Both the position numbers and the translations under genes were made by a program. The notes under the pieces were generated by a model. The model saw only the letters and a program-made list of their open reading frames with translations. It had not been told where the DNA came from and ran no database searches. DNA of 62,953 nucleotides, filler included, from a bacterium (GTDB lineage: Bacteria > JAMORN01): NCBI GenBank assembly GCA_027063545.1. It is 20 parts of 20 records of this genome, joined end to end, with 100 filler letters (N's around TTAATTAATTAA, not from the genome) between each part and the next. Parts side by side here need not be neighbours in the genome. Positions count along the whole stretch, not along the records: positions 1 to 12,825 come from JAMORN010000017.1; 19 more parts are not named here. One strand, 5' to 3'. Shown one piece after another: positions 1-34,158 of this stretch (position 1 is its first letter; each line of letters starts with the position of its first letter).

Positions 1-729
1 ATTTTAGCAATAGCAACTTACCAGATGTATAGAAATGATATAGAAAAGGTTCTTCCAGCAGCATGTTCAATAGAGCTTTTACATACATTTTCTTTAATAC
101 ATGATGATCTTCCAGCAATGGATAATGATGATTTTAGAAGAGGTAAACCTACAAATCATAAGGTTTTTGGAGAGGCAATAGCAATTTTAGCAGGTGATGC
201 GTTGTGTGTAGAGGCTTTTAGAATTTTAGGAAAAACAGGAAATGCTAGGGCTGTAGAATTACTTGGTGAAGCAATAGGTGTTGGAGGTGTAATTAGTGGA
301 CAGGTTGTAGATATTGAAAGTGAGAATAAAGAGGCACCGAAAGAAGAGTTAGAAAAGACATTGGAATTTATTCATTTATATAAAACAGCAGCTTTAATTA
401 GAGCAAGTATTTTAATAGGCGCATTATATGCGGAAGCTCCAGAGGAAGATTTTAAGGTTTTATCAGAATTTGGTAATAAAATAGGCTTAATTTTTCAAAT
501 AGTGGATGATATTTTAGATATTACTTCAACTCCAGAGGTATTAGGAAAAGATGTGGGAAGTGATATAGAAAAAGGAAAACTTACATATCCAAGAGTTTAT
601 GGAATAGAGGCTTCTTATAAAAAAGCGTATCAACTTCTTGATGAAGCTTTAGAACTTTTATTAAAAATAGAAAGAGACACTATAGTTTTAGAAGAGATAG
701 CTAAATTTTTTATTAAAAGAATTAATTAA
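1..729 (+). CDS. ispA: Polyprenyl (geranyl/farnesyl) diphosphate synthase, 5'-truncated
   Basis: FARM and SARM motifs (SLIHDDLPAMDNDDFRRGKPT; FQIVDDILD); directly upstream of dxs; frame open to the window start. Confidence 0.95.
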   Translation: MLAIATYQMYRNDIEKVLPAACSIELLHTFSLIHDDLPAMDNDDFRRGKPTNHKVFGEAIAILAGDALCVEAFRILGKTGNARAVELLGEAIGVGGVISGQVVDIESENKEAPKEELEKTLEFIHLYKTAALIRASILIGALYAEAPEEDFKVLSEFGNKIGLIFQIVDDILDITSTPEVLGKDVGSDIEKGKLTYPRVYGIEASYKKAYQLLDEALELLLKIERDTIVLEEIAKFFIKRIN

Positions 730-792
730 TTTTTTTCTATTTAAGATTTTTTTCTATTTAAGTTAGTTAGATAAAAAAGGAGTATAGTAATA

Positions 793-2652
793 ATGCTATT
801 AGATAAAGTAAAATATCCTGAAGATTTGAAAAAAATAGAAAGAAAAAAGCTTGTAGAATTAGCACAGGAAATAAGAGAAAGAATAATAGAGGTTGTCTCA
901 AAAAATGGAGGCCATCTTGCTCCTTCTTTGGGGGCTGTTGAGCTTTCTATATCACTTTTGTATGTATTTAATCCTCCTAAAGATAAAATTGTTTGGGATG
1001 TGGGACATCAGTCTTATGCATATAAGATTCTAACAGGAAGAAATGATAAATTTGATACAATAAGGCAATATGGAGGGCTTTCAGGGTTTAATAGTATATT
1101 TGAGAGTGAGTATGATTTTTTTACAGTAGGGCATGCTTCTACATCTATTTCTGCAGCTTTAGGAATGGCAAAAGCAAGGGATTTAAAAGGAGAGGATTTT
1201 AAGGTAGTTGCAATAATTGGTGATGGGGCTTTAACAGGAGGGCTTGCTTTAGAAGGATTAAATAATGCAGGAACTTCAAAAACTGATATCATTGTTATTT
1301 TAAACGATAATGGAATGAGTATTTCTCCAAATGTAGGAGCATTATCTCATTATTTAACAAAGGTTATTTCAAATCCCTTATATAATACAGTTAGGATTGA
1401 AATTGATAATTTATTGAACAAAAGTAAAATAGGTGGAAATATTGTAAAAACATTAGATAGATTAGATGGACTTTTAAAAGGGCTTGTTACACCGGGGAGG
1501 TTTTTTGAGGATTTTGGATTTAGGTATTTTGGCCCTATTGATGGACATAATATTGATGAACTTATTGATACATTAGATAATATTAAAAACCTTCCAGGAC
1601 CTAAGATTTTACATATAAAAACAATAAAAGGTAAAGGATATAAACACGCAGAAAAAGATGCAACCAAATTCCATGGTATTTCCTCTTTTGAAAAAGAAAC
1701 AGGAGAGGTAAAGAAAAAGGATAATAAGCTCTCTTATTCTAAGGTAGCAGGAACTATTATCACCAAATTGGGGGAAGAGCATAAGAATATTTCAGTAATT
1801 GTTGCTGCAATGCCTTCTGGTACGGGGACTGATATATTTCAAAAAAGATTTCCAGAAAGATATTTTGATGTTGGTATAGCAGAAGGCCATGCTGTTACAT
1901 TTGCAGGTGGGCTTGCAACCCAAGGTATTCTTCCTTATGTATTCATTTATTCTACTTTTTTACAACGGGCTTATGATGAGATTATTCATGATATTGCTCT
2001 TCAGAATTTAGGGGTTGTTTTTTGTGTAGATAGGGCAGGGCTTGTTGGGGAGGATGGTCCAACCCATCATGGAGTTTTTGATTTAGGTTATTTTGGTATA
2101 GTTCCAAATATAGAGGTATGGGCTCCTACCTCTTTAGAAGAGTTAAGGGATATGTTATATTATAGCTATGAATATATAAAGAAAAATCCACATCCTCTTG
2201 TTATAAGATATCCTAGAGCAAGTGATGATGTTATTGATTTAAATAAAATAGAAAATGTAAGGGATTATAAGCAAGAGGATGTAGTTAAAGAGAATATTAT
2301 CTTAGCAGTAGGTTCTCAATATAAGAATGTATTAGAGGCTGTTTATGATATAGGGGATAAACTAGATGTTATAAGAGTAAATAAGGTATATCCTTTGAAT
2401 GAAGAGTTTTTTGAGAGGGTATTTAGTGTTGGTAAAAGGATAATGGTTGTAGAAGAGGTTGTTCCAAGAGGTAGTTTTGGAGCAAATTTAATTAAGTGGG
2501 CAAAAGAGAAGGGTTTTGATGTAGAAAAATTTAAAGATTTAACTTTGCCTGATGAATTTATTACTCATGGTCCTAGAGATTTACTATTGGAGATTTATGG
2601 ATTAAAGGGTAATAAGTTGAGAGAGAATATAATTCAATTTTTTAGTTTATAA
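793..2652 (+). CDS. dxs: 1-deoxy-D-xylulose-5-phosphate synthase
   Basis: GGHLAPSLG, WDVGHQ, GHASTSIS, TPP motif GDGALTGG...NDN, DRAGLVGEDGPTHHG; AGGAG RBS. Confidence 0.98.
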   Translation: MLLDKVKYPEDLKKIERKKLVELAQEIRERIIEVVSKNGGHLAPSLGAVELSISLLYVFNPPKDKIVWDVGHQSYAYKILTGRNDKFDTIRQYGGLSGFNSIFESEYDFFTVGHASTSISAALGMAKARDLKGEDFKVVAIIGDGALTGGLALEGLNNAGTSKTDIIVILNDNGMSISPNVGALSHYLTKVISNPLYNTVRIEIDNLLNKSKIGGNIVKTLDRLDGLLKGLVTPGRFFEDFGFRYFGPIDGHNIDELIDTLDNIKNLPGPKILHIKTIKGKGYKHAEKDATKFHGISSFEKETGEVKKKDNKLSYSKVAGTIITKLGEEHKNISVIVAAMPSGTGTDIFQKRFPERYFDVGIAEGHAVTFAGGLATQGILPYVFIYSTFLQRAYDEIIHDIALQNLGVVFCVDRAGLVGEDGPTHHGVFDLGYFGIVPNIEVWAPTSLEELRDMLYYSYEYIKKNPHPLVIRYPRASDDVIDLNKIENVRDYKQEDVVKENIILAVGSQYKNVLEAVYDIGDKLDVIRVNKVYPLNEEFFERVFSVGKRIMVVEEVVPRGSFGANLIKWAKEKGFDVEKFKDLTLPDEFITHGPRDLLLEIYGLKGNKLRENIIQFFSL

Positions 2653-2710
2653 GCTCTTTATTTATTCTATTTTTATCCTATATTTAAATAATAAGAAAAA
2701 GGAGTAGAGA

Positions 2711-3715
2711 ATGAGATTTTTACAATTTTTTATTTTATTCTATCTTATTAATATTATAAATATTAAAGCCCAGGATTATTTAGCAAATCAATTACCCCAA
2801 AAAATGACAAATGATAAGTATACATTTAAACTTCAATGGGTGGATGATTTTCCAGATGCTTTTACAAATGGAAGATGGGCTTATGCCACATGGACTTTTG
2901 ACAATAATTTATGTGAATTTAGATATGATAATATTTTAATGACAGATAATGCTTTAAATTTACAAATAACAAAAAAAGTTGATCCTTCTACAACAAGTTA
3001 TCCAGATAAACCATACTGGAGTGGCGATGTATATTCAAAAGAAGAGTATAAGTATGGAAGATTTATTTGTAGAATGAAACCAAATTCTCCTTCAGGTGTT
3101 ATTACATCATTCTTTTTAATTCATATAGATTTTGATGCTAATTGGAATCCAACAGAATGGAGAGAGATAGATATAGAGTTTGTAGGAACAACTGAAAAGG
3201 TTCAATTTACACTTCATTGGATAGATAATGGAGTTCATAATCAGAATCCTAACACTATTAATTTATCTATAGATGTAGAAAATGATTATCATACTTGGAT
3301 AATAGAATGGACACCGGAATATATTAAGTATTATTTAGATGGAGAACTTCTCTTTACTTTTGATGATCCTTATTTAATCTCTCAAGTATCAGAAGGCCCT
3401 CAGAGAATAGAGTTTAATTATTGGGTAAGTAGTGCCACAAGTTGGGCAGGAGAGTTTGATGAGAGTGTTTTACCAATAGAGGCAAGTTATGATTATATTG
3501 CGTATTATAGTTTAGATACAACAACAACATCTATAATAGAAACAAATAATTTAGAATCAAATAAAAATATTCTTCTAAAAAAGGCTAATATTGAGTATTA
3601 TGATATTTTGGGGCGTAGATTATCAACACCACCAAAATCAAATGGGGTTTATTTTAGGGTTTATAAATACCAAAATAAGATTTTAAAAAAAGAGAAATTT
3701 TTAATTATAAACTAA
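2711..3715 (+). CDS. Secreted GH16 beta-glucanase (lichenase-like) with a C-terminal secretion-signal-like tail
   Basis: Signal peptide; WREIDIEF catalytic motif; YHTWIIEWTPEYIKYYLDG; Thr-rich linker then YYDILGRR...GVYF tail resembling T9SS/Fibrobacterota C-terminal domains. Confidence 0.85.
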   Translation: MRFLQFFILFYLINIINIKAQDYLANQLPQKMTNDKYTFKLQWVDDFPDAFTNGRWAYATWTFDNNLCEFRYDNILMTDNALNLQITKKVDPSTTSYPDKPYWSGDVYSKEEYKYGRFICRMKPNSPSGVITSFFLIHIDFDANWNPTEWREIDIEFVGTTEKVQFTLHWIDNGVHNQNPNTINLSIDVENDYHTWIIEWTPEYIKYYLDGELLFTFDDPYLISQVSEGPQRIEFNYWVSSATSWAGEFDESVLPIEASYDYIAYYSLDTTTTSIIETNNLESNKNILLKKANIEYYDILGRRLSTPPKSNGVYFRVYKYQNKILKKEKFLIIN

Positions 3716-3728
3716 GCATTAAATATAT

Positions 3729-4583
3729 ATGAAAATTTTAATAGTTTTCAATAGAAGTAAAATAGAAGAGTTTGTTAAAGAAGGGATTTTTAGTGTTATA
3801 TTAAATGAAGATGAAATTGATTTTTTTCTACTAGAAAAGGATTATGAGATTATATCAAAATTTATAGATAAAGATTTAAAGATTAATATTTTGTCTTCAG
3901 AAGATGGAATTTCTAAAAAAATAGATTTTATTTTTTCAATAGGAGGAGATGGCACAGTTTTAAAAGCTGTAAGAGAAATAAATTATCCTCAAATTCCTAT
4001 AGTTGGTTTAAAAAAAGGAAAACTTGGTTTTTTAACCTTTGATGATATTTATAATATTGATAAGATTATAAAAAAACTTAAAAAAAAGGAGTTTTTTATA
4101 GAAAAACGGAAACTTTTAGAGATAAATTTTAAGGGAAAAAAACAGTTCGCTTTAAATGATGTTGTTATTGAAAGGGAAGATTTGGCACGTATGATTCATA
4201 TAAATGTTTATGTAAATGGGGAGTTTTTTACAACCTATTATTCTAATGGTATAATAATTTCCACACCAACAGGTTCAACAGCTTATAATCTTTCAGCAGG
4301 AGGCCCTATTACATCTCCAGAACTTGATTGTTTTATTTTAACACCTATTTGTCCCCATTCTTTGATTCATAGACCTATAATTTTTGATAAAAAAACAACT
4401 TTATCCTTTAAAACCTTAGATAAAAATATAGATCCTGTATTAACTTTAGATGGACAGGTTGCTAAAAGAATAAAAGAAAATGATAAAATTGAAATTACTC
4501 TTTCTGAAAAATATATTTTATTAGTAAGGGATCTTTCTCAAAAATTTCCTTTTGTATTAAAGGAAAAGTTTGATTGGAGATAG
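3729..4583 (+). CDS. nadK: NAD kinase
   Basis: GGDGT, GKLGFL, ALND, STPTGSTAYNLSAGGP; upstream of recN. Confidence 0.95.
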   Translation: MKILIVFNRSKIEEFVKEGIFSVILNEDEIDFFLLEKDYEIISKFIDKDLKINILSSEDGISKKIDFIFSIGGDGTVLKAVREINYPQIPIVGLKKGKLGFLTFDDIYNIDKIIKKLKKKEFFIEKRKLLEINFKGKKQFALNDVVIEREDLARMIHINVYVNGEFFTTYYSNGIIISTPTGSTAYNLSAGGPITSPELDCFILTPICPHSLIHRPIIFDKKTTLSFKTLDKNIDPVLTLDGQVAKRIKENDKIEITLSEKYILLVRDLSQKFPFVLKEKFDWR

Positions 4584-4588
4584 TTTTT

Positions 4589-6259
4589 ATGCTTGAAAGG
4601 GTTAGAATTAAAAATTTTACTATAATAGATGATTTGGAGGTTGAGTTTTCAAAAGGCTTAAATATTTTAACAGGGGAAACTGGAGCAGGTAAATCTATAA
4701 TTATAGATGCTATAGAGATTGCTTTAGGTGCTAAATTTGATAGTTCTTTAATCAGAAAAGGAGAAGACCAGGGCTTTATAGAACTTGAATTTATTGATTA
4801 TCCGAAAGAGGTTTCTTTGATTCTTAAAGATTTAATGATAGAAGAAGATGACTCTTTGATAATAAGAAGGGTATTTGAAAGAGAAGGTAGGACAAAGTTT
4901 TTTATTAATTCTCAGAAAGTGTCTTCAACTATTATTAAATCATTAAAGGATTATTTAATAGATATAGTTAGCCAGCACTATACAATTAAACTTTTTAACA
5001 AAGATTTTCAACTTATTATTTTTGATTTAATAGCAGGTTTGGAGGATTTAAAGAAAGAGGTTTCAGAGATTTACTTAAAATTAGAGAAAAAAAAGCGGGA
5101 ATATCAAAAATTATTAGAGAATATAAAAGATATAGAAGCAAAAAAAGAATTTTATGAGTTTCAATTAAAGGAGTTTGAAGAAATTTCTATTGATGATATA
5201 AATGAAGAGGAGTTTTATAGGGAACTTAATTTTTACAAAAATTATCAGAAAAATATAGATATAATAGTTCAAATTAAGAGTTTAATAGAGAATGAGGAGT
5301 TTTCTTTAAGTTCTCATCTATCTAATTTGAGTAAAAATATTTCTAAATTAAGTATAGAAAAAAAGGATTATTATCTAGAAAAGATTGATGAATTTATTGA
5401 TATAATATCAGAATTAGAAAAGGAACTAGATATAGATTTAGATATTTCGCCAGAAGAGGTTGAGGAAAGATTTAATAATCTTCAGAAGATAGCGATAAAG
5501 TTAGAGGATTTAAAAGTAAAGTATGAAAAAGATAATGTTGAAGAGCTAAAAGAGTTAAAAAAAGATATAGAGGAAAAACTAAATTCTATTGGTTCTTTTG
5601 AGATTGATAAAAAGAGAATAGAAGAGGAGTTAGAAAAAATAGAAAAAGAGTATATAGAAAAAGCAACTCTTTTATCTAAAAAAAGAAAAGAAAAATCTAA
5701 AGAGATAGAAAAAACTATAACAAAATCTTTAAGAGAGTTATCAATGCCTTATGCGGAGATTGTTTTTAAGATAGAGGAGAGGGGAAGTTTTTCAAAAGAT
5801 GGTATTGATGAACTGGAGATTTTAATAAAAACAAATAAAGGAGAGGATTTTAAGCCTTTATCAAAGATTGCTTCAGGTGGAGAATTGTCAAGGGTTATGC
5901 TTGTTTTGAAGGAGTTTTATATAAAGAAATTAAACATACCAACAGTTGTTTTTGATGAGATTGATACAGGAATAGGAGGAGAGACAGCCTCTAAGGTTGG
6001 AGAGCATTTAAGAAATTTAGGAAATTTTTCACAGGTTTTTGTTATAACTCATTTCTCACAGATTGCAGTAAAGGGGGATATCCATTTTAAAGTGGAAAAA
6101 GTGGAAGATAAAGAAAAAGTAGCAACATTTATTAAACAGCTAGATAAAAAAGATAGAATTGTAGAACTAGCTAGGATGATGGGTGATTCTAAAAACAAAG
6201 ATTTTATAGAAACAGCAAAGTCATTACTTGAAAAGGAGAAAAGTTATGAAAAAATTTAG
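4589..6259 (+). CDS. recN: DNA repair protein RecN
   Basis: LTGETGAGKS, coiled coil, ASGGELSR, FDEIDTGIGG, ITH; ATG at 4589 preferred. Confidence 0.96.
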   Translation: MLERVRIKNFTIIDDLEVEFSKGLNILTGETGAGKSIIIDAIEIALGAKFDSSLIRKGEDQGFIELEFIDYPKEVSLILKDLMIEEDDSLIIRRVFEREGRTKFFINSQKVSSTIIKSLKDYLIDIVSQHYTIKLFNKDFQLIIFDLIAGLEDLKKEVSEIYLKLEKKKREYQKLLENIKDIEAKKEFYEFQLKEFEEISIDDINEEEFYRELNFYKNYQKNIDIIVQIKSLIENEEFSLSSHLSNLSKNISKLSIEKKDYYLEKIDEFIDIISELEKELDIDLDISPEEVEERFNNLQKIAIKLEDLKVKYEKDNVEELKELKKDIEEKLNSIGSFEIDKKRIEEELEKIEKEYIEKATLLSKKRKEKSKEIEKTITKSLRELSMPYAEIVFKIEERGSFSKDGIDELEILIKTNKGEDFKPLSKIASGGELSRVMLVLKEFYIKKLNIPTVVFDEIDTGIGGETASKVGEHLRNLGNFSQVFVITHFSQIAVKGDIHFKVEKVEDKEKVATFIKQLDKKDRIVELARMMGDSKNKDFIETAKSLLEKEKSYEKI

Positions 6260-7727
6260 TTATTTTATTTCATTTCTATTTATAATAGTATTTTTATCCT
6301 CTTGTGTTTCTGTAAATGTGGAGGAGCAATTTATAACAGTTGTTGATTCTTCTATTTATTATAATGATACAATAAGAAGTATAATAGGTCCTGATACTGT
6401 ATATATTTCTCCTTATTATATAGCAAAACAGGAAGAGATGCCATGGGCTTATTTACTTTTAAAGATATACTCTGTTTATCAAGATAAAGTTCCAGAGGAT
6501 TATGTATATTATATAGATGCTAGGAAGATGTATGAAACAATTGGAGATCCTTTTACATTTTATGTTCCTTACTATATGTTAGAAGATTATTTATCATGGT
6601 TTGAAGTAGAACAGAGTAAGTTATTTGGTATTCAGGTAGGTGTATATAATGATACTGTATTTGTGGTAAAAGTCCTTCCAAATTCTCCAGCAGATTTAAG
6701 TGGATTAAAATCAGGAGATAAAATATTAGAGGTAAATGGTTATCCAGTAAAAGGTGATTTATCTTTATTTCAGTTTTTAACACAAGATGATGATATTGAT
6801 TATAGTTTTGTTATAAAAAGGGATAATATTATAGATACAATAGACATATACAAAGATTTATATTCTATTCCAGTGTGTTATAGTGATTCAATAACACCTG
6901 ATATTGGCTATATTTATTTATCTACATTTATAGCAGATTCTCAAACAGATGGTGGTTCAACTTCTGAACAATTAAAAAAGGCATTAGAAGAAACAGAAAA
7001 ATTTAAAGTTGTTATTCTTGATTTAAGAGGAAATCCAGGAGGATATATAACAGAAGCTCAGAATAGTGCTTCTTTATTTTTAGATCCAGGCGATACTATT
7101 ATAAAAGAGGTATATAGGGATTATGATACAACCTCATATACAGAAATAAAAGGTGTTTGGGGGGAGAGTTATTTAACAGCACCTGATTCTCCGGAAACAG
7201 GTCTTTTTAAGGATAGAAAAATAGTTTTATTAGCAGATGGAGGTACTGCTTCTGCTAGTGAAATTTTAATAACAGCACTTAGGTATAATAAAGGTTATCC
7301 TTTAGTAGGTCAAACTACTTATGGGAAAGGCATAGGCCAAGGTTCTTTTATAAATGATTTACTTCACTCAGCAGCACATATAACTATGATAAAGTTATAT
7401 ACTCCAGCAGGAGATTCTTATCATCAAGTAGGTATAGAACCAGATTACCCTGTTGATAGTTTATACGATAATTTTCAGGATTTAGAACTGTTAACTGCTA
7501 TAAAGGTGGCTGATTCTATAGTAAAGGCAGAAAGTGGGGTTTTGGCAAAACTATCTTCTACATCCATAACAGAGGATCCTTGGATAAATTTAAAGGTTGA
7601 AGGAATAAATTATTTTAATAGTTTATATAAAAGGTTAAGCCCTAAGAAAATTGCAGAATTAGGATTTTTAAAGGTACCAGATATTCTTGATCCTATTAAT
7701 CTAAGTAAAATAGAGAGCCTAAAATAA
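6246..7727 (+). CDS. S41 (CtpA-like) peptidase lipoprotein with PDZ domain
   Basis: Lipobox LSSC; PDZ (PNSPA..GLKSGDKIL.VNG); LDLRGNPGG, TASASE, TTYGKG, GIEPD. Confidence 0.9.
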   Translation: MKKFSYFISFLFIIVFLSSCVSVNVEEQFITVVDSSIYYNDTIRSIIGPDTVYISPYYIAKQEEMPWAYLLLKIYSVYQDKVPEDYVYYIDARKMYETIGDPFTFYVPYYMLEDYLSWFEVEQSKLFGIQVGVYNDTVFVVKVLPNSPADLSGLKSGDKILEVNGYPVKGDLSLFQFLTQDDDIDYSFVIKRDNIIDTIDIYKDLYSIPVCYSDSITPDIGYIYLSTFIADSQTDGGSTSEQLKKALEETEKFKVVILDLRGNPGGYITEAQNSASLFLDPGDTIIKEVYRDYDTTSYTEIKGVWGESYLTAPDSPETGLFKDRKIVLLADGGTASASEILITALRYNKGYPLVGQTTYGKGIGQGSFINDLLHSAAHITMIKLYTPAGDSYHQVGIEPDYPVDSLYDNFQDLELLTAIKVADSIVKAESGVLAKLSSTSITEDPWINLKVEGINYFNSLYKRLSPKKIAELGFLKVPDILDPINLSKIESLK

Positions 7728-8466
7728 AAGATGAGAAAACAATAGGTGCTATTTTACTTCTTATGATTGTTTTAGAGAAGGTTAGATAAAATAGTTTATC
7801 TTTTGGGATAATATTTGAAAAGATTTCTATATCTTTTTGGGAAAAGCCGCTTTCAGGCCCTATAATAAGAAGAATGTTTTTGAATTTTTTTTTAGGTTTA
7901 AATAATTTTTCTTCTGGAGGGTTTGGATCTGCTATAATTATAGTATCAAAAGATGAAAAGAATTCAGGAGATAGTTTTTTTATTTCTTTTGGGTTATTTA
8001 GGTGAGGAAAGTAAAGCCTTTTGTTTTGACGAATAGATTCTTTTATAATAGTTTTGCCTTTTTTTTGAAGGAATTTCAAAGAGTATTCTTTTGAAAATTC
8101 TGTTAGTATTGGAAAAAATTCTATAATATCTGTTTGAGTTGAGTAATCAAGAATATCTCTAATAGTTTCTTTCTCACCAATAGAGAACATAAGGGATATT
8201 TTAATATTGTTTTTTGGTATAAATTTTTCGGTTATATCATCAATTATTTTAACTTCAATAGAGGATTTTTTTATAAATACTATCTGAGTTAGAAAGATTT
8301 GGTTTTTAGTAATAAGATGAAGTTCTATTAAATCATCGGGTTTTGCTCTAATAACCTTTAAAAATTGAAGTTCTACCTCATCAAGTTTGATAGAGGTTAT
8401 TTGATTTTTACTAAAACAAAAATCACCTTCAATAAAAATTCTTGGAGTAAATTTTTCCCTTGGCAT
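7696..8466 (-). CDS. rsmE: 16S rRNA m3U1498 methyltransferase, divergent
   Basis: KVIR...D.I.L N-terminus, ESIRQNKR, LIIGPESGFS..D, IIRSKIA; motifs degenerate but in the RsmE order. Confidence 0.75.
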   Translation of the reverse strand: MPREKFTPRIFIEGDFCFSKNQITSIKLDEVELQFLKVIRAKPDDLIELHLITKNQIFLTQIVFIKKSSIEVKIIDDITEKFIPKNNIKISLMFSIGEKETIRDILDYSTQTDIIEFFPILTEFSKEYSLKFLQKKGKTIIKESIRQNKRLYFPHLNNPKEIKKLSPEFFSSFDTIIIADPNPPEEKLFKPKKKFKNILLIIGPESGFSQKDIEIFSNIIPKDKLFYLTFSKTIIRSKIAPIVFSSFILGSLFYLD

Positions 8467-8494
8467 TTATAAAAAAATAAGTTTTTAAAAAGAT

Positions 8495-9482
8495 TTAAAA
8501 AAAAGTATTTTCCTCTTTATACTTTTCCCAAAAATTTTTTACTTTATACTCTTCAAATGAGCAATAGTATGTTTTTCTTAACTTAGCTATTGTTAAGTTA
8601 ATATCTATATTTTCTTTATCAGAAAGTCCTTTCTCTTCGATAAAATTTTTAAAAAGCTTATATTTTTTTCATATTAAGATATAGATTAGAGTTTGTAGGA
8701 ATTCTTTAAGGATATGCAAAAACTTTATTGTTAGAAAATGTTTTTAAAAATTTTATAGTGTTTTTAAGGGAATTGAGTGTTTGGTTTGGTATTCCAAAGA
8801 TTATATTTGAAAAATAATTTATATTATTTTCATTCAAAAATTCTAAAACCTTTTTATTATTTCTTATTTCTATATTATTCACTCTATTTAAAATAACCAT
8901 TTCTTTTTTATTTATAGATTGAATGCCTATTTTTAAGTTTATTTTATTTTTTATATGTAGTTAGAAGATCTTTTAAAATAGGATACTTAAATAGTTCAGT
9001 CTTTACTTGTAATGTTAGATTTCCTTAACAGAGGAATTATTTAATTTTTTTTATCTCATTTTTTATTAAATCCACAACAGATTTTTCAGCATAACCTAAT
9101 ATGAAGTAATCAACATTTTTATATTCTTTTATTAAAGTATTTAAAGGAGAAGAGAAACTTCATAGCCTCCTAACACAATTTTATCTTTATAACTATAATT
9201 TTTAATTTCTTTTACTATTCTACGTGTTGAATTTTAGTCCAAGCATAAAGAGAGATTAATATATAATCATTTATGTTATGAAGAAAAGAATTGTTAAATT
9301 TATTTGCAATATCTTCTTCTATAATTTTTTGTTCTACTCCTATATATTTATTAAATTAAATGAATAAAATAGTCGTAAAATATATTGTTTCGTTTTATAT
9401 TTGCCATTATAGAGGCAAGCCCTAGTGAGATTTTTGGATATTCGTTTTTTAAAAAATCGAAATTTATTATTAATATTTTCAT
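8495..9482 (-). pseudogene. Cobalamin-binding radical SAM protein, multiply disrupted
   Basis: Manual translation from AGGAG-ATG at 9482 across frameshifts: MKILIINFDF..YPKISLGLASIMAN / ISLYAW / KIVLGGYEVS / VDYFILGYAEKS (B12-binding pattern), then LKIGIQS..LNR / IIFGIPNQT..S..NT..F / AYP*RIP (radical SAM barrel C-half). No CxxxCxxC segment found. ORF 8706-8900 is one fragment. Confidence 0.8.
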
Positions 9483-9509
9483 TTTTTACTTCTCCTAGAG
9501 AGTTTTATT

Positions 9510-9811
9510 TTATTTGTTTTTAGTATGGTATCTATTGGGTTTTTTATTAATTCTATCATTTGCCCAAAATACTGTTATTAACCTATTATCTCCTAGTACA
9601 ATAACAATGGAGTTATAATTCTTTTTTAATAGACTATCTTTTAACTTTTTGTCTTTTATATTCTTTTTTATTTGTTTTTTCCCAAATATTATTCTATTTG
9701 GGTTATTAGGTAACTTCTCACCTAATATAAAGCTAATTCTATAAGTTTATTAGGAATTCTTCTATGAAGTTTTCTGTAGATAAAGTGATTAGTTTCTTTT
9801 AGATTTTCCAT
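9510..9811 (-). pseudogene. Small DUF4258-like (BECR/RelE-fold-like) protein, one frameshift
   Basis: GGAGG RBS then MENLKETNHFIYRKLHRRIPNKLIELAL, frameshift near 9725-9730, then LGEKLPNNPNRIIFG...SIVIVLGDNRLITVFWAN...TAA; 302 nt fits a 1-nt deletion; TxHxxxR...R.I and ITV(F/Y) pattern. Confidence 0.6.
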
Positions 9812-9832
9812 TTTTCCCCTCCATTTCTTTAT

Positions 9833-10681
9833 TTATTTTACTATTTGGTAGATACCTCCTCTTTGTTTAAACTTTTCAAAGTCAAATTTTAATTCATCTA
9901 ATTGGGATAGTAATTCATACTCTAATAGATTTAAGCCACGTTTAATTTTATAATTTATATTAGTAAAGGGATAACCTTCAGAGTCAACCATTATATATGA
10001 ACCTATCATAGTATGGTTATCTTCATATATTACAGGACATACCTTGTTAGCATCTTTATTTATATTTTTGAATAACCCAAATTTTTCTTTATTTATAGAG
10101 AGCATAGGTGTATATAGATCATTTTCACCTTTAATAGGTAAAAATTGGAATACTTTCCATCTTATAGGTTTTATTTTGGTTATAAATTCTGTAAAGTTTT
10201 CTTTATAGTTATAATTAGAAACCATGGTATTTATCTTAAGAGAAATATTTTGTTCTTTTATATCAAAACATATTTTATAATAATCAAGAATTTTATAATT
10301 TACGTGTCTTCCAAGAAATAGAAGGGTCTCTTTTTTAAGAGAATCAACACTTAGGCCAATTAAATCTAAAGAGTTATCAAATTTTTTTAAATAATCTTTA
10401 GTTATTAAATAACCATTTGTTACAATAGATGTTGTAAAACCTAAATCTTTGGCTTTTTTTACTAAATTAGGAAGGTATGGTACAAGAGTAGGTTCACCTC
10501 CAACAAAATTTATTTTTTTTATTTCTATTTCTTTTAATTCTTTTGCTAATTTTTCTATTATTTTTATCCAATCTTTTTCCTTTAAATTTTTATTTTTATA
10601 CATATGTGAATAACAACCTTTACACCTCATATTGCAATAATTTGTTATATGAAGATTTATAGTCATACCATAACTATTCAT
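9833..10681 (-). CDS. pVip: Prokaryotic viperin (pVip), antiviral radical SAM ddhNTP synthase
   Basis: NLHITNYCNMRCKGC, KINFVGGEPTL, TSIVTNG, GLSVDS, LKINT, RWKVFQ.LPIKGEND, EDNHTMIGSYIMVDSEG, FDFEKFKQRGGIY; AAGGAGG RBS. Confidence 0.92.
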   Translation of the reverse strand: MNSYGMTINLHITNYCNMRCKGCYSHMYKNKNLKEKDWIKIIEKLAKELKEIEIKKINFVGGEPTLVPYLPNLVKKAKDLGFTTSIVTNGYLITKDYLKKFDNSLDLIGLSVDSLKKETLLFLGRHVNYKILDYYKICFDIKEQNISLKINTMVSNYNYKENFTEFITKIKPIRWKVFQFLPIKGENDLYTPMLSINKEKFGLFKNINKDANKVCPVIYEDNHTMIGSYIMVDSEGYPFTNINYKIKRGLNLLEYELLSQLDELKFDFEKFKQRGGIYQIVK

Positions 10682-10746
10682 TATTAAACCTCCTTTTTTT
10701 GATTTTCCAATATTTTAATAATAAAGCAAAAAATCATTATATTATT

Positions 10747-10773
10747 GTAACTTATTTTGTTTTAATATGTTAC
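10747..10773. promoter_or_regulatory. Inverted repeat, putative operator/UAS in the divergent viperin-HEPN intergenic region
   Basis: GTAACTTATT-N7-AATATGTTAC (9/10 arms); a second imperfect dyad at about 10784-10822. Confidence 0.35.
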
Positions 10774-10947
10774 TCTAATTGGTTATTAGATAATCTTTAA
10801 TTTTTAAGATTGTTATCTTAATAAAATTGGATATTTATCTTTTTAAAAAAGTATTAAAACATTAAATTTTTTATATTTTTTTAATTTTTTAAATTTTTTA
10901 TTTTACTTAAAAATATAAATAAAAGACATTTTTTTAAGGAGATGTAT

Positions 10948-11493
10948 ATGTCTAAGAAAAGCTTTTGAGGAGGATTATTAGGAGGTTTAATTTTAGGGGC
11001 AGGCATGACTTTTTTACATAAGACGAATGAAAAAGAAAGATTAAAGAATGACTTAAATAATGCAAAGAAACTATTAACAGAGTTAGAAGTAAAAATGAAA
11101 TTTTTGAAATCAAAATATAGGGAGTTAGAAGATACTTTAAAAGAGCGTAATAGAAGACTATCTTATCTAGAAAAACAAGACAAATTAATGAAGGAATATG
11201 AGCGTTTTAAAGAAAATTTTATAAATGTTTTTTATAATGATATGGTTAATGCTTTAATTAATAAAAAAATAGAATTTAATTTTGGGAATATTTTAGAGTT
11301 TATTAAAACTAATTCTAGTGTTGCAGAAATATTTAAATATTCAGATATTGATAAAGCAAGAAAGATAAGAAATAGAATCGCCCATCCATATAGTAATGAA
11401 AGAATCCCGGAAGAAGAATTACTTTTTGCTTTAGAAGTTTTTGAGAAATATAATAATATTTTAGATGAATATAATAAAGATAGATCAGTATAA
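10948..11493 (+). pseudogene. Membrane-anchored coiled-coil HEPN-like protein with an in-frame TGA at codon 7 (or translated from ATG 11005)
   Basis: AGGAG RBS + ATG 10948 in frame with ORF 11005: MSKKSF*GGLLGGLILGAGMTFL; coiled coil; C-terminal RNRIAH (RX4H). Confidence 0.65.
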
Positions 11494-11773
11494 ATAAATT
11501 AAAAAAGAGAAGAGTTATGATAAGTAGAAATTCCATAAAAATTTTATTTATGATGGTTATTTTAGGGATATTTTATGTAGAATTAAACGCAATGATGGTA
11601 CTAGATGAAGAAAAACTTCTTGCTGATAAATATATATACTATTCAAATAGAGATTTTTCATATGAAGCAGATATTAACTGTGAAATAGCAAGATTGTTAG
11701 ATAAACATGGATATGAAAAAGAAGCTGTAGCATTAGATTCAGCAAGAAAGATAAGAAATAGAATTGCCAATCC
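11355..11773 (+). repeat. 33-bp direct repeat (31/33 identical) at 11355-11387 and 11741-11773
   Basis: AGCAAGAAAGATAAGAAATAGAAT exact for 24 bp, then cGCCcATCC versus tGCCaATCC. Confidence 0.9.
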
Positions 11774-11919
11774 TAAAAAAGGATTATATAAATGTATCTA
11801 AAGAAGAAGCAAAATATGCTATAGAGGTATTTGAAGAATATAAAGATAAAGAATTTGTTATTGGCTTTTTGGAAAGTATAGAAAAGGTATTAGAAGAATT
11901 GTATAACTTTTTTTGTTAA
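11517..11919 (+). pseudogene. HEPN-like paralogue with a signal-peptide/TM N-terminus, His-to-Asn motif change and a frameshift in an A6 run
   Basis: ARKIRNRIANP; removing one A at 11775-11780 gives KDYINVSKEEAKYAIEVFEEY...LYNFFC* (stop 11917-11919), matching PEEELLFALEVFEKY of the upstream paralogue. Confidence 0.65.
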
Positions 11920-11957
11920 AAGAAAAATATATTGAATAAAATAAGGGTAAAAATAGT

Positions 11958-12825
11958 ATGTCAGTATTAATTTCTTATTTAGCAACAAATAATGATGATC
12001 CTGAAAAGAAAGGTAAAAAGTTAGGGCCAACTTTATATGTGCTTACATCTAATTTTGCTAAAAAAAGAAAGATAAATAAGGCTGTAATATTTTTCCGTGA
12101 AAGTAATAAAAAAGAGAGAAAAATTTACAATTATATAAAGAGAGAGTTAGAAACAACATTTCGAGATTTAAAAATAAAACTTTATTATAAATTATGGAGA
12201 GGTGATGATCCAACAGATCATAAAACAATTTTTCAAGAAACTAGAAGGTTAGTAAAGGAAATATATGAGGAAATTATTGTTAAAGATAAAGATGAAGAGT
12301 ACTATATTCATATATCTCCAGGTACTCCTACAATGCATGCGATTTGGCTTCTTCTTAGTGAATTAAGATATTTACCAGGAAAGTATACTATAATAAAATC
12401 TTATGAAGGTGATGAAAACAAAGAAGATTATATAAAAGAAGTTGATATAAAAAAAGAGATTTATGATGTTATTTTTAATAATCAAAGTATTGATAGAATC
12501 TTTTGGGATCCTCATAAATTTAAAACTGAAATATTAAAAGAGTTATTTAAAAAAGCAGAGATGTTTGCAAAAATAAAGGCACCTATTTTGATTTTGGGAG
12601 AAAGGGGTACAGGAAAAACTACTTTAGCCAAATGGATAAGAGAAAATAGTCCTTTTAGAAATCCAGAATTAAAGATTTGGCCTACGATTGTTACGAGTCA
12701 GTATGACGATAAGTTAATGAGATCTGAACTTTTTGGATATAAAAAAGGCGCTTTTACAGGAGCAGATAGCGATAAAGATGGATTATTAAAAATATTAGAT
12801 GGAGATACTTTATTTTTAGATGAAG
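11958..12825 (+). CDS. RtcR/CARF-like sigma54-interacting AAA+ transcriptional regulator, 3'-truncated
   Basis: N-terminal DPTDH..IF and IHISPGTPTMHAIWLLL; Walker A LILGERGTGKT; SELFGYKKGAFTGA; Walker B TLFLDE at the contig end. Confidence 0.85.
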
Positions 12826-32223: not shown

Positions 32224-32412
32224 ATATTCCCCCTTTCTTTTTAAATTTAATATTATTAATTTAAAAATATAGATAAAAACAAGCAAAAATACAACAGATT
32301 ATAGTCTCTCTTNNNNNNNNNNNNNNNNNNNNNNNNNNNNNNNNNNNNNNNNNNNNTTAATTAATTAANNNNNNNNNNNNNNNNNNNNNNNNNNNNNNNN
32401 NNNNNNNNNNNN

Positions 32413-33346
32413 CACCCTTTTTATATCTTTGAGGATCCCTTAGTTTTCTCTTTTTTATAAACATAGAGATAAAATCCTTATCATTAATTTTATTTGTATC
32501 AACCTGAAATCTATATAAGTCTGCTTTTATCTTTTCTCTTTCAGAAGAAGAATTCTTAAAAATAGGATCTGCAATTACGTTATCCTCTCTATCAAAATAA
32601 ATAGAATCATTGGTTATTGAGTCAAATACACTCCTATAAGGTATTCCTAAAAATTTATCTTTACAGTTCCATACATTTTTATTAACATTTCCCCAAAAAT
32701 TATTATAAACAACTGTTGGATCAAGTTTCTTAGATGAGCAATAAATTCCATAATTTAGGTTATTATAAAAAATTGTTGAAGCAACCATTAAATCACCTGA
32801 ATTTACAAAAATACCTGCTACATCATTATGATCAAATATTGAGTTTATAACAACCATATCACTTAAACTATCTATATACATCCCAATTTTACAGTTTTTA
32901 ACAACTGTATTTTTTATTGTAAAGGAGGCATTTTTTACATATATACCATAGTAGGCATCTTCTATATCTGCATTTAAAATAAAGGTATTTGCGTCATTGG
33001 GATTATCAAAAATAATTCCATACCAAGATGGCCCTGGAATATTATTTGTTCTTGGCTTAAACACTACCCTTTTATTTTTAAAACCATCAATTCTCAAACC
33101 TCCTTTAACAATAATCTTTATAGGCCTATCTTTTCTTTCATCTATATAAACAGTAACCCCTCTTTTTATTACAAGAACCACATCCTCAGGTATTATTAAA
33201 TTATCTTTAATAAAAACAGGTTGATCTAAAATACTCCAAACCTCATCTTCAAGAAGAGGCCCATATTTGTACATCTGGGAAAAAATTTCCTCAATAAAAA
33301 GATATAAGATAAAAATTAAAAGAAAATATATAATTTTTTTTCTCAT
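32413..33346 (-). CDS. Exported right-handed parallel beta-helix protein, truncated
   Basis: Signal peptide; WYGIIF and repeated N..(Y/I)GIY turns; YNNFWGN, N...DP.F. Confidence 0.7.
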
Positions 33347-33393: not shown

Positions 33394-34158
33394 ATGATAA
33401 AAGTAAAAAATTTATTTACAAATATTGTTTTAAGTTTTTCTATTTTTCTATTAGTTAATTGTAGCAATAATAGTGCCACTTATGATCTTGGTATAAAATT
33501 TAAAAACTATAAAGATCCTACTATATATTATGTCGACATCTATTCAGATAAAATAATAAAAAATAAAAGAAAAACTGAAAAAATAAGCTATAAACTTTCT
33601 CAGAAGATTAAATCTATATATACTGACAATTCTGCAAAACTTCTATTTACTATAGATTCAATAGTAAAAAATGATTCTATTTTCAAACAGCAATACCATA
33701 AATATATTATTAAAATAACTCCTTTTGGAGAAATTACTTATATGAATTTTGAAAATCTTCCGGAAAATACGTTAGATCTAGATATAAAACTCAATAAATT
33801 ATTAATAAAATTATATCCTATGCTTCCTTATAAAAAAGTAAAAATCGGGGAAAGTTGGGAGAGAAAACAAAGTTTCTATTATGAAGATGAAACTTCTTTT
33901 GGGAATATAGACTTATATAAAAAATTTAAATTAAAGAAAGTTAAAGATACTATTGCTGTTATATCTTTTAAAATAAAAGGTAATTCTATTATAAACATTA
34001 AAAACCATCCTAAAAAAGCAAAACTTAAAATTTCTTCTAAAGGAGAAATAAGATTTAATATTAAACAAAAAATAATTCTATCTATACATGGAACTTTAAA
34101 AACAATAAAGAATAATCAAATTACAACAGAAGAAGTTAATATTATTTTGAAAAATTGA
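33394..34158 (+). CDS. Hypothetical lipoprotein
   Basis: Lipobox-like LVNC; LP.K.VKIGESW motif. Confidence 0.6.
   Translation: MIKVKNLFTNIVLSFSIFLLVNCSNNSATYDLGIKFKNYKDPTIYYVDIYSDKIIKNKRKTEKISYKLSQKIKSIYTDNSAKLLFTIDSIVKNDSIFKQQYHKYIIKITPFGEITYMNFENLPENTLDLDIKLNKLLIKLYPMLPYKKVKIGESWERKQSFYYEDETSFGNIDLYKKFKLKKVKDTIAVISFKIKGNSIINIKNHPKKAKLKISSKGEIRFNIKQKIILSIHGTLKTIKNNQITTEEVNIILKN

Follow-up and report, generated by a model that had tools for sequence, protein, structure and literature searches.

Introduction

Prokaryotic viperins (pVips) make 3'-deoxy-3',4'-didehydro-NTP (ddhNTP) chain terminators, and are said to work alone. RtcR, the regulator of the canonical RtcR-RtcBA RNA repair regulon known from E. 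coli and Salmonella (Hughes et al. 2020, PMC7790460; Kotta-Loizou et al. 2022, PMC9650030), combines CARF, sigma54 AAA+ and HTH parts. Type II/III-A CoCoNuT superoperons, too, have an RtcR homologue at their 5' end; in the sections of Bell et al. 2024 (eLife, PMC11090510) devoted to them, they include TerY-P triads, CnuH helicases and BrnT-like RNases. Those sections already propose a feedback from HEPN to CARF, in which HEPN/BrnT RNases generate 2',3'-cyclic-phosphate ends that an RtcR-like CARF domain senses; the main text of that paper makes no mention of viperin or radical SAM. Here, we describe a locus in which a pVip lies close to an RtcR-type regulator: six genes between rsmE and the end of a contig, within a stretch of bacterial DNA of 62,953 bases (the whole stretch is referred to as the window).

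An earlier reading of this DNA, the original prediction, had arranged the six genes in two divergent arms, repaired several of them by hand, and proposed that they form an undescribed defence module in which the products of RNA cleavage are sensed by the CARF activator, which in turn controls the viperin operon. All six genes are found where that reading placed them, the contig end that it gave at 12825 agrees with a first contig spanning bases 1-12825, and the stops and frameshifts that had been repaired are genuine under genetic code table 11. We consider it probable that the locus is a defence island in decay and rearrangement, with the pVip as its one remaining working gene, and not a new working system. 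Its parts are of known kinds and mostly dead, and they do not demonstrably make up a single system. With a divergent pVip and an eroded RtcR-type regulator, both from a deep-branching vent bacterium, the locus enlarges known families and, read in this way, illustrates how a defence island decays, a single gene persisting while those around it disappear.

An intact viperin gene among broken neighbours

The pVip is the sole unbroken, complete gene among the six (Table 1). Its residues 7-275 align with positions 3-280 of the 281 in the NF038283 profile (8.9e-76; 254.7 bits, with the cut-off at 180), the PADLOC pVip model ('not associated with kinases') matches at 2.2e-73 and Radical_SAM (PF04055) at 73.1 bits, so the original assignment as a viperin holds. 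It resembles known pVips (NF038283) in its full-length match above the curated cut-off, in the CxxxCxxC cluster motif, present near the N-terminus as CNMRCKGC, and in its neighbourhood of defence genes. In contrast to them it is divergent, with 52% identity to its nearest relative (P0125) and at most 44% to all others among the matches listed, and has no nucleotide kinase beside it. The product, predicted from knowledge of the family, would be ddhNTP chain terminators. A scan of metagenomes with this protein returned its own contig and one unrelated match of 27%, and nothing else, and a pVip is present in four of 400 other genomes, in three of them above cut-off; within 8 kb of these four genes there is no homologue of the regulator, of the DUF4258-like gene, of the first HEPN-like gene or of the radical SAM pieces. 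The gene is probably read from a sigma70-type promoter of its own, a -35/-10 pair (TTAAAA-18-TATAAT, 10765-10736 on the minus strand, 10/12 matches) that lies 55 bases upstream of the start, sites of this kind not being enriched (27 observed, 33 expected).

Table 1. Features of the locus and its left border, in coordinates of the window (aa, amino acids)
Feature	Coordinates	Strand	Evidence or state
rsmE, intact housekeeping gene at the left edge of the island, 256 aa	7696..8466	-	TIGR00046, 74.5 bits against a cut-off of 41
Class-B (B12-binding type) radical SAM pseudogene	8498..9485	-	Open pieces in all three frames, in-frame stops
Probable DUF4258/BrnT-like (RelE-fold RNase) pseudogene	9513..9811	-	Two frames, split near 9725-9746
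Prokaryotic viperin (pVip), intact, 282 aa	9833..10681	-	Matches to NF038283, PADLOC pVip and Radical_SAM
Divergent intergenic region, 18% G+C	10682..10947	.	Sigma70-like pair; no sigma54 promoter and no GGAA-N6-TTCC palindrome
HEPN-like gene 1: membrane anchor, coiled coil and C-terminal helical domain with RNRIAH	10948..11493	+	In-frame TGA at 10966-10968 (codon 7)
HEPN-like gene 2, diverged tandem paralogue of gene 1	11517..11919	+	Frameshift in an A-run near 11775; RNRIAN in place of RNRIAH
RtcR-family CARF and sigma54 AAA+ activator, first 289 codons	11958..12825	+	Open to the contig end; Pfam and PADLOC matches

The contig that carries the locus is C17 in the genome's own assembly, which comprises 1.57 Mb in 355 contigs with 26.5% G+C and is 82.7% complete. 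The host, a bacterium of low G+C content, belongs to a deep lineage recorded in hydrothermal-vent metagenomes: the sequencing runs that contain the stretch are labelled hydrothermal vent metagenome, and the 400 diverse genomes sampled are all related to it at the 'same domain' level only, with rpoB identities of no more than 55-56% among the matches listed. TGA terminates 113 of the 1040 open reading frames (ORFs) of at least 150 aa in the genome, and rpoB has zero internal stops, so table 11 applies. On the same two grounds we rejected TGA as a sense codon, a reading under table 4 that would have fused the start of HEPN-like gene 1 to its ORF. Within the window, contigs are joined by artificial N44-TTAATTAATTAA-N44 spacers; as a whole it strings together some 20 contigs, each near 2 kb in length, and two of about 12 kb, and ORFs that cross a spacer are artefacts.

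The radical SAM gene downstream of the pVip is dead. One 84-aa piece (8709-8960) corresponds to the radical SAM core's C-terminal half, with matches to PADLOC PDC-M51A (2.5e-14), NF006067 (1.6e-7) and PF04055 (1.1e-4; 22.8 bits, under the cut-off of 29.5), while the B12-binding domain is seen weakly (PF02310, E 0.077 on 9144-9233; weak tblastn matches to 9147-9245 from seven of 20 B12-type queries). When 20 full-length B12-type radical SAM proteins were used in tblastn, their residues ~10-125 mapped to 9452-9147 and ~290-400 to 8960-8661. Between these ends ~190 bases remain for ~160 core residues, which makes the stretch ~300 bases too short; because the mapped ends leave no room, ~160 residues of the core, including the cluster motif, are missing, and no CxxxCxxC motif occurs in any frame piece of the region. 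Restoring the gene requires at least five frame changes, plus the removal of several stops. The earlier identification of a B12 radical SAM enzyme stands as that of a remnant. The PADLOC candidate PDC-M51A is itself a B12-binding radical SAM protein, matched here by the 84-aa remnant of a dead gene. As a marker of a specific system we rejected this model: it is unspecific, since at E values of 1e-30 or below it also picks out ordinary B12-type radical SAM genes, in 30 of the 401 diverse genomes, and a literature search found no paper naming PDC-M51.

Between this remnant and the pVip lies a probable DUF4258/BrnT-like pseudogene. Compared by hhalign with a profile of 16 DUF4258 genes located after related regulators, the piece 9725-9811 aligns with columns 26-49 (E 1.7e-4) and the piece 9513-9746 with columns 82-104 (E 0.11), the two standing in the order of the profile. 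Read through with an X at the break, the gene scores 9.2 bits against a hidden Markov model (HMM) that we built ourselves; its pieces have no match in Pfam, NCBIfam or PADLOC, and a word search with the piece found no homologue. The collinear hhalign matches give moderate support to the DUF4258-like RNase of the original prediction, in the form of a frameshifted gene. Whatever it once encoded, this gene is dead here.

HEPN-like genes on the opposite strand

HEPN-like gene 1 has a Shine-Dalgarno sequence (AAGGAG, 10936-10941) ahead of its ATG at 10948, and is then stopped at codon 7; a later ATG at 11005 opens a 162-aa ORF that lacks the anchor. Among 1.84 billion representatives it has a sole true homologue, P0122 (187 aa, 40% identity, E 8.9e-23), which retains the N-terminal hydrophobic segment and the coiled coil. 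A 677-aa match (P0123) is a TPR-like repeat protein and was judged spurious. The protein of gene 1 is probably HEPN-like. The Rx4-6H motif reads RNRIAH in gene 1 and RNRVSH in P0122, and the AlphaFold 2 (AF2) model (pLDDT 79.7) matches the HEPN protein 2hsb at rank 1 in VIA-align, with 99 residues aligned at a root-mean-square deviation of 2.8 and a Z of 8.8, a value that according to the tool's own warning lies in the range common for helical bundles. Four of the 50 VIA-align entries listed, including rank 1, are titled HEPN, the further ones at Z 6.2-7.5; AbiA, Csm6, HI0074 and SO_3166, which we take to be HEPN-bearing proteins, are also among the matches listed. A Foldseek search of the model against the PDB returned nothing at E 0.001 or below (best E 0.44), no Pfam HEPN family scored above threshold (HEPN_RiboL-PSP, E 0.017), Atlas leads score only 0.82-0.85 (below 0.9), and a scan of viral contigs with the HEPN alignment found nothing. 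The protein shares with HEPN RNases, such as the HEPN toxins of HEPN-MNT pairs and the C-terminal domains of Csm6 and AbiA, an R-N-x-x-x-H motif and an all-helical C-terminal domain, and differs from them by an additional N-terminal membrane anchor and long coiled coil and by a family of two known members.

Gene 2 follows in tandem. In BLASTP its part 11517-11798 aligns with gene 1 at residues 115-128 (E 8e-6) and its part 11764-11916 at residues 134-151 (E 0.003), so that the two are collinear across the frameshift. Because the histidine of the motif is substituted, gene 2 lacks the Rx4-6H feature. Both HEPN-like genes proposed earlier are moderately supported as such, the first by its motif and its fold match and the second by its collinearity with the first.

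Could the breaks be errors of assembly or sequencing in a fragmented metagenome-assembled genome, the genes themselves being whole? The 355 contigs and the position of the gene 2 frameshift in an A-run would fit such a view. It has to contend, however, with a radical SAM region that combines its many frame changes and stops with the loss of a large part of the core, and with a histidine in gene 2 that was lost by substitution; moreover no breaks are seen in the neighbouring rsmE and pVip genes or in the 289 codons of the regulator, 70% of the genome is spanned by ORFs of 150 aa or more, and a second and a third sequencing run hold 47% and 29% of the words of the stretch. We regard this explanation as highly improbable.

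A different possibility is that the pVip and the membrane-anchored, coiled-coil HEPN-like RNase form a conserved, divergent two-gene defence pair, next to which the regulator, the DUF4258-like gene and the radical SAM gene are unrelated neighbours. P0122, the HEPN-1 homologue, and P0125, the nearest pVip, both come from JGI (Joint Genome Institute) data, are each found on two contigs, and have the same longest contig of 105,458 bases, and so they probably lie on one contig. Both genomes known to have a gene of the HEPN-1 family carry mutually closest pVips, in the second genome apparently on the same contig, P0122 keeps the anchor, coiled coil and motif, and fold and motif point to HEPN. Descent alone, however, may account for the presence of both genes in two related genomes, at the present locus the pVip is intact but HEPN-1 has its stop at codon 7, no HEPN-1 homologue accompanies the four other pVips, and pVips reportedly need no partner. 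We judge a pair of this kind unlikely. It is doubtful, too, that viperin and HEPN-like RNase make up an unrecognised antiviral pair that was once coupled to RNA damage by the adjoining RtcR-like CARF activator. Were a pair to exist, this HEPN-like family would be a real partner of pVip and, to our knowledge, its gene the first RNase partner of a viperin. In our literature searches, no paper connected pVip to RtcR or to an HEPN operon partner.

The RtcR-type regulator and its relatives

The regulator is open to the end of the contig. Its N-terminus is of the RtcR-type CARF kind, as had been suspected: Pfam RtcR (PF06956) matches at 31.3 bits against a cut-off of 23.1, and PADLOC RtcR_PspF1 (CARF_AAA_HTH) at 1.7e-70 over positions 5-258 of 468. 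The AAA+ part matches Sigma54_activat (PF00158) at 83.1 bits and contains a Walker A motif (GERGTGKT) and the GAFTGA loop (KGAFTGA), and an ISPGTPxM block is invariant in the family alignment (A1). The solved NtrC and PspF cores match the regulator profile at 1e-36 to 5e-47; this sequence search of solved structures returned AAA+ cores only and no CARF entry.

The C-terminus of the regulator lies very probably on a second contig, C136. An HMM of the full-length family finds a fragment cut at its 5' side at the very start of this contig (1-417), of which bases 1-414 match RtcR_PspF1 positions 355-466 of 468 (1.1e-10) and HTH_8 at 21.8 bits against 22. For each half the nearest relative is L008 (2e-74 for the part in the window, 3.5e-20 for the C136 fragment), and since they cover complementary parts of the profile and share this relative, C136 was taken as the continuation after a gap of ~290 bases. 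The five other sigma54 activators of the genome give E values of at least 0.013.

On C136 the stop of the regulator is at 417 and a convergent gene ends at 419. The convergent operon (419-7262, minus strand) includes a UPF1/MkoA-like superfamily 1 (SF1) helicase that is cut by the contig end (8.6e-30 with an HMM of the helicases of relatives; PADLOC MkoA, 1.2e-76), a 541-aa and a 641-aa protein without a family match, a DUF2997 protein, a 160-aa protein and an NrdG-like radical SAM activase. Apart from the helicase, its genes have zero homologues in the 80 regulator loci described below, and the operon may represent an undescribed helicase-based defence set. The 541-aa protein was considered as CnuE-like and rejected (hhalign E 0.47); its single-sequence AF2 model (pLDDT 33.7) was not used.

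The regulator shares with canonical RtcR the CARF, sigma54 AAA+ and HTH architecture. It differs in its score with the canonical RtcR model, NF038308 (98.5 bits against a cut-off of 650, from a partial query), and in that rtcB lies on another contig, C143. There, RtcB (522-1601, plus strand; 275 bits) is located 2.3 kb upstream of another sigma54 activator (3895-5364), one that has no CARF match, and these two may be the real RNA-repair regulon of this genome.

To what genes are relatives of the regulator attached? One genome per species was scanned; 410 relatives were found, the best 80 loci (L008-L087) were kept, and neighbours within 5 kb were clustered. Downstream of the regulator, on the same strand, an MkoA/UPF1-like helicase occurs in 44 of the 80 loci, a VWA protein in 30, a PP2C phosphatase in 28, a Ser/Thr kinase in 23 and DUF4258 in 19, a set that matches the RtcR-headed CoCoNuT superoperons in the sections of PMC11090510 that describe them. 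Counted anywhere in the locus, DUF4258 is found in 21/80; it is usually the first gene past the regulator, 28-202 bases after the stop in 15 loci. The link between DUF4258 and the regulator is real in relatives, a point in favour of the original prediction. Within this sample the nearest regulator, L008, sits among genes for PspA, YqiJ, VWA and nitroreductase proteins. In L018 (6610-9942) and two similar loci, a protein with HEPN_Swt1 and DUF499 (PADLOC HmaC, 1073 bits) is encoded just upstream of the regulator, and this HmaC-like gene represents another defence gene beside the regulator family.

Compared with the CoCoNuT/TerY-P systems as treated in those sections of PMC11090510, the present locus has a regulator of the same family, a probable DUF4258/BrnT-like remnant, HEPN-like genes and, on C136, a related UPF1/CnuH-like helicase that is cut by the contig end. 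It departs from them in that the helicase operon is convergent and not downstream on the strand of the regulator, in that a pVip is present, and in that the sigma54 promoter and the palindromes described below are missing. A TerY-P triad (VWA, PP2C and kinase) is not found either: HMMs of the VWA and PP2C proteins of relatives have zero matches in the 82.7%-complete assembly, and the kinase HMM has only a weak match on contig C133 (4.1e-6). We also considered HEPN-1 as a relative of CnuE and rejected this (hhalign E 0.93 against an alignment, drawn from 11 relatives, of the protein encoded after the helicase).

Sigma54 promoters and palindromes

We scanned for sigma54 promoters with TGGCAC-N5-TTGCW, keeping the GG and GC core and allowing up to two mismatches, in the 77 of the 80 loci that were scannable. 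A promoter lies 69-189 bases past the regulator stop, on the same strand, in 43 of the 77 (background 0.042 per 500 bases), and in 33/77 a GGAA-N6-TTCC palindrome, often in two copies ~21 bases apart, is placed between -60 and +30 relative to the stop (background 0.008 per 260 bases). The palindromes and the promoter are likely to be the activator's binding sites and target promoter, predicted to drive the CoCoNuT/TerY-P superoperons. Such control is proposed in general terms in PMC11090510, in the passages of which that concern it the sites are not described. They give a concrete, testable architecture for RtcR-headed CoCoNuT superoperons.

None of these sites is found at the present locus. 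The palindrome, exact or with one base relaxed, occurs neither in 8400-12825 nor anywhere on C136; a sigma54 site with the core, even at up to three mismatches, is absent from 8400-12825, and C136 has only two weak ones, inside genes. In the divergent intergenic region, TGGCAC-N5-TTGCW at up to three mismatches gives two plus-strand matches that lack GG or GC and zero on the minus strand. Elsewhere the genome has rpoN (419 bits) and 16 sigma54 sites with at most one mismatch. A target in trans was sought and rejected: the 28 GGAA-N6-TTCC sites in the genome are at about chance level, and the one on contig C134 that is 190 bases from a good sigma54 site falls within a coding region, that sigma54 site preceding flagellar genes.

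These observations bear on the circuit that the original prediction had envisaged, in which RNA is cleaved by HEPN and BrnT-like RNases, the resulting 2',3'-cyclic-phosphate ends are detected by the CARF domain, and the activator turns on the viperin operon, so that the present locus would be a recently inactivated copy of one six-gene system. Several features are in keeping with it: the regulator belongs to a family for which, in the sections of PMC11090510 on this family, the loop has already been proposed with BrnT-like RNases, a DUF4258 remnant of the kind that follows regulators in relatives lies in the pVip arm, P0122 and P0125 share the length of their longest contig, and the layout is tight and divergent. 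That same published proposal means that the sensor-effector loop is not undescribed. Control of the viperin through 10682-10947 finds no support, as neither a sigma54 promoter nor a family palindrome is present there or in the rest of the locus, as the pVip has a sigma70-like promoter, and as relatives act on downstream genes of their own strand, not on divergent ones. Further, HEPN-1 is unrelated to the CnuE-like proteins of relatives. Nor do the parts co-occur in the other loci compared: in phmmer searches, homologues of the pVip, HEPN-1, HEPN-2 or the pseudogene pieces are found in 0/80 regulator loci (one weak generic radical SAM match, 31 bits, in L015), and the combination is shared neither by these nor by any of the four other pVip loci. 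Because four of the six genes are broken, no such circuit can run here, and that it once did in an ancestor of this locus seems to us very unlikely.

Origin of the locus

What, then, may have produced this arrangement? In the account that we favour, a decaying and rearranged island, the pVip would be a stand-alone viperin that still looks functional at the worn-down edge of the island. The genes around it would be relics, with the dead BrnT/DUF4258-like and B12-type radical SAM genes downstream and two broken tandem HEPN-like genes on the other strand. In relatives, the regulator would act through GGAA-N6-TTCC at its own 3' end and through a sigma54 promoter ~70-190 bases past its stop. Here, the promoter, the palindromes and the downstream operon on the same strand would have been lost, the regulator would run head-on into the C136 operon, and it may now be an orphan. 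The pieces would have originated in separate systems, or in a single superoperon that was rearranged, rather than in one six-gene machine.

Some points weigh against decay and rearrangement as the explanation. With an assembly that is incomplete and fragmented to the extent given above, the target operon could lie in the unassembled part, and the frameshift of HEPN-like gene 2, being in an A-run, could be an assembly error. There are hints that the pVip and a HEPN-1-like gene travel together, and DUF4258 is a true partner of the regulator family, so that its remnant here may be no accident. The comparison on the pVip side comprised four loci, and the homologue search with the regulator covered proteins of 158-506 aa, full-length members of the family having ~530-560 aa, so that an orthologue on the 105-kb contig of P0122 and P0125 would have escaped it.

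Other sigma54 promoters in the genome

Within the window, a perfect sigma54 promoter, TGGCACTATTATTGCT, is present at 33463-33478 on the minus strand, ~117 bases upstream of an ORF of at least 329 aa (32357-33346, minus strand) with a signal-like N-terminus. On contig C134, flagellar genes, among which the third ORF downstream looks like FlgK, have a sigma54 promoter upstream of them, TGGCATTTATATTGCA, at 4601 on the plus strand; since this promoter precedes them, the flagellar genes appear to be sigma54-dependent in this organism.

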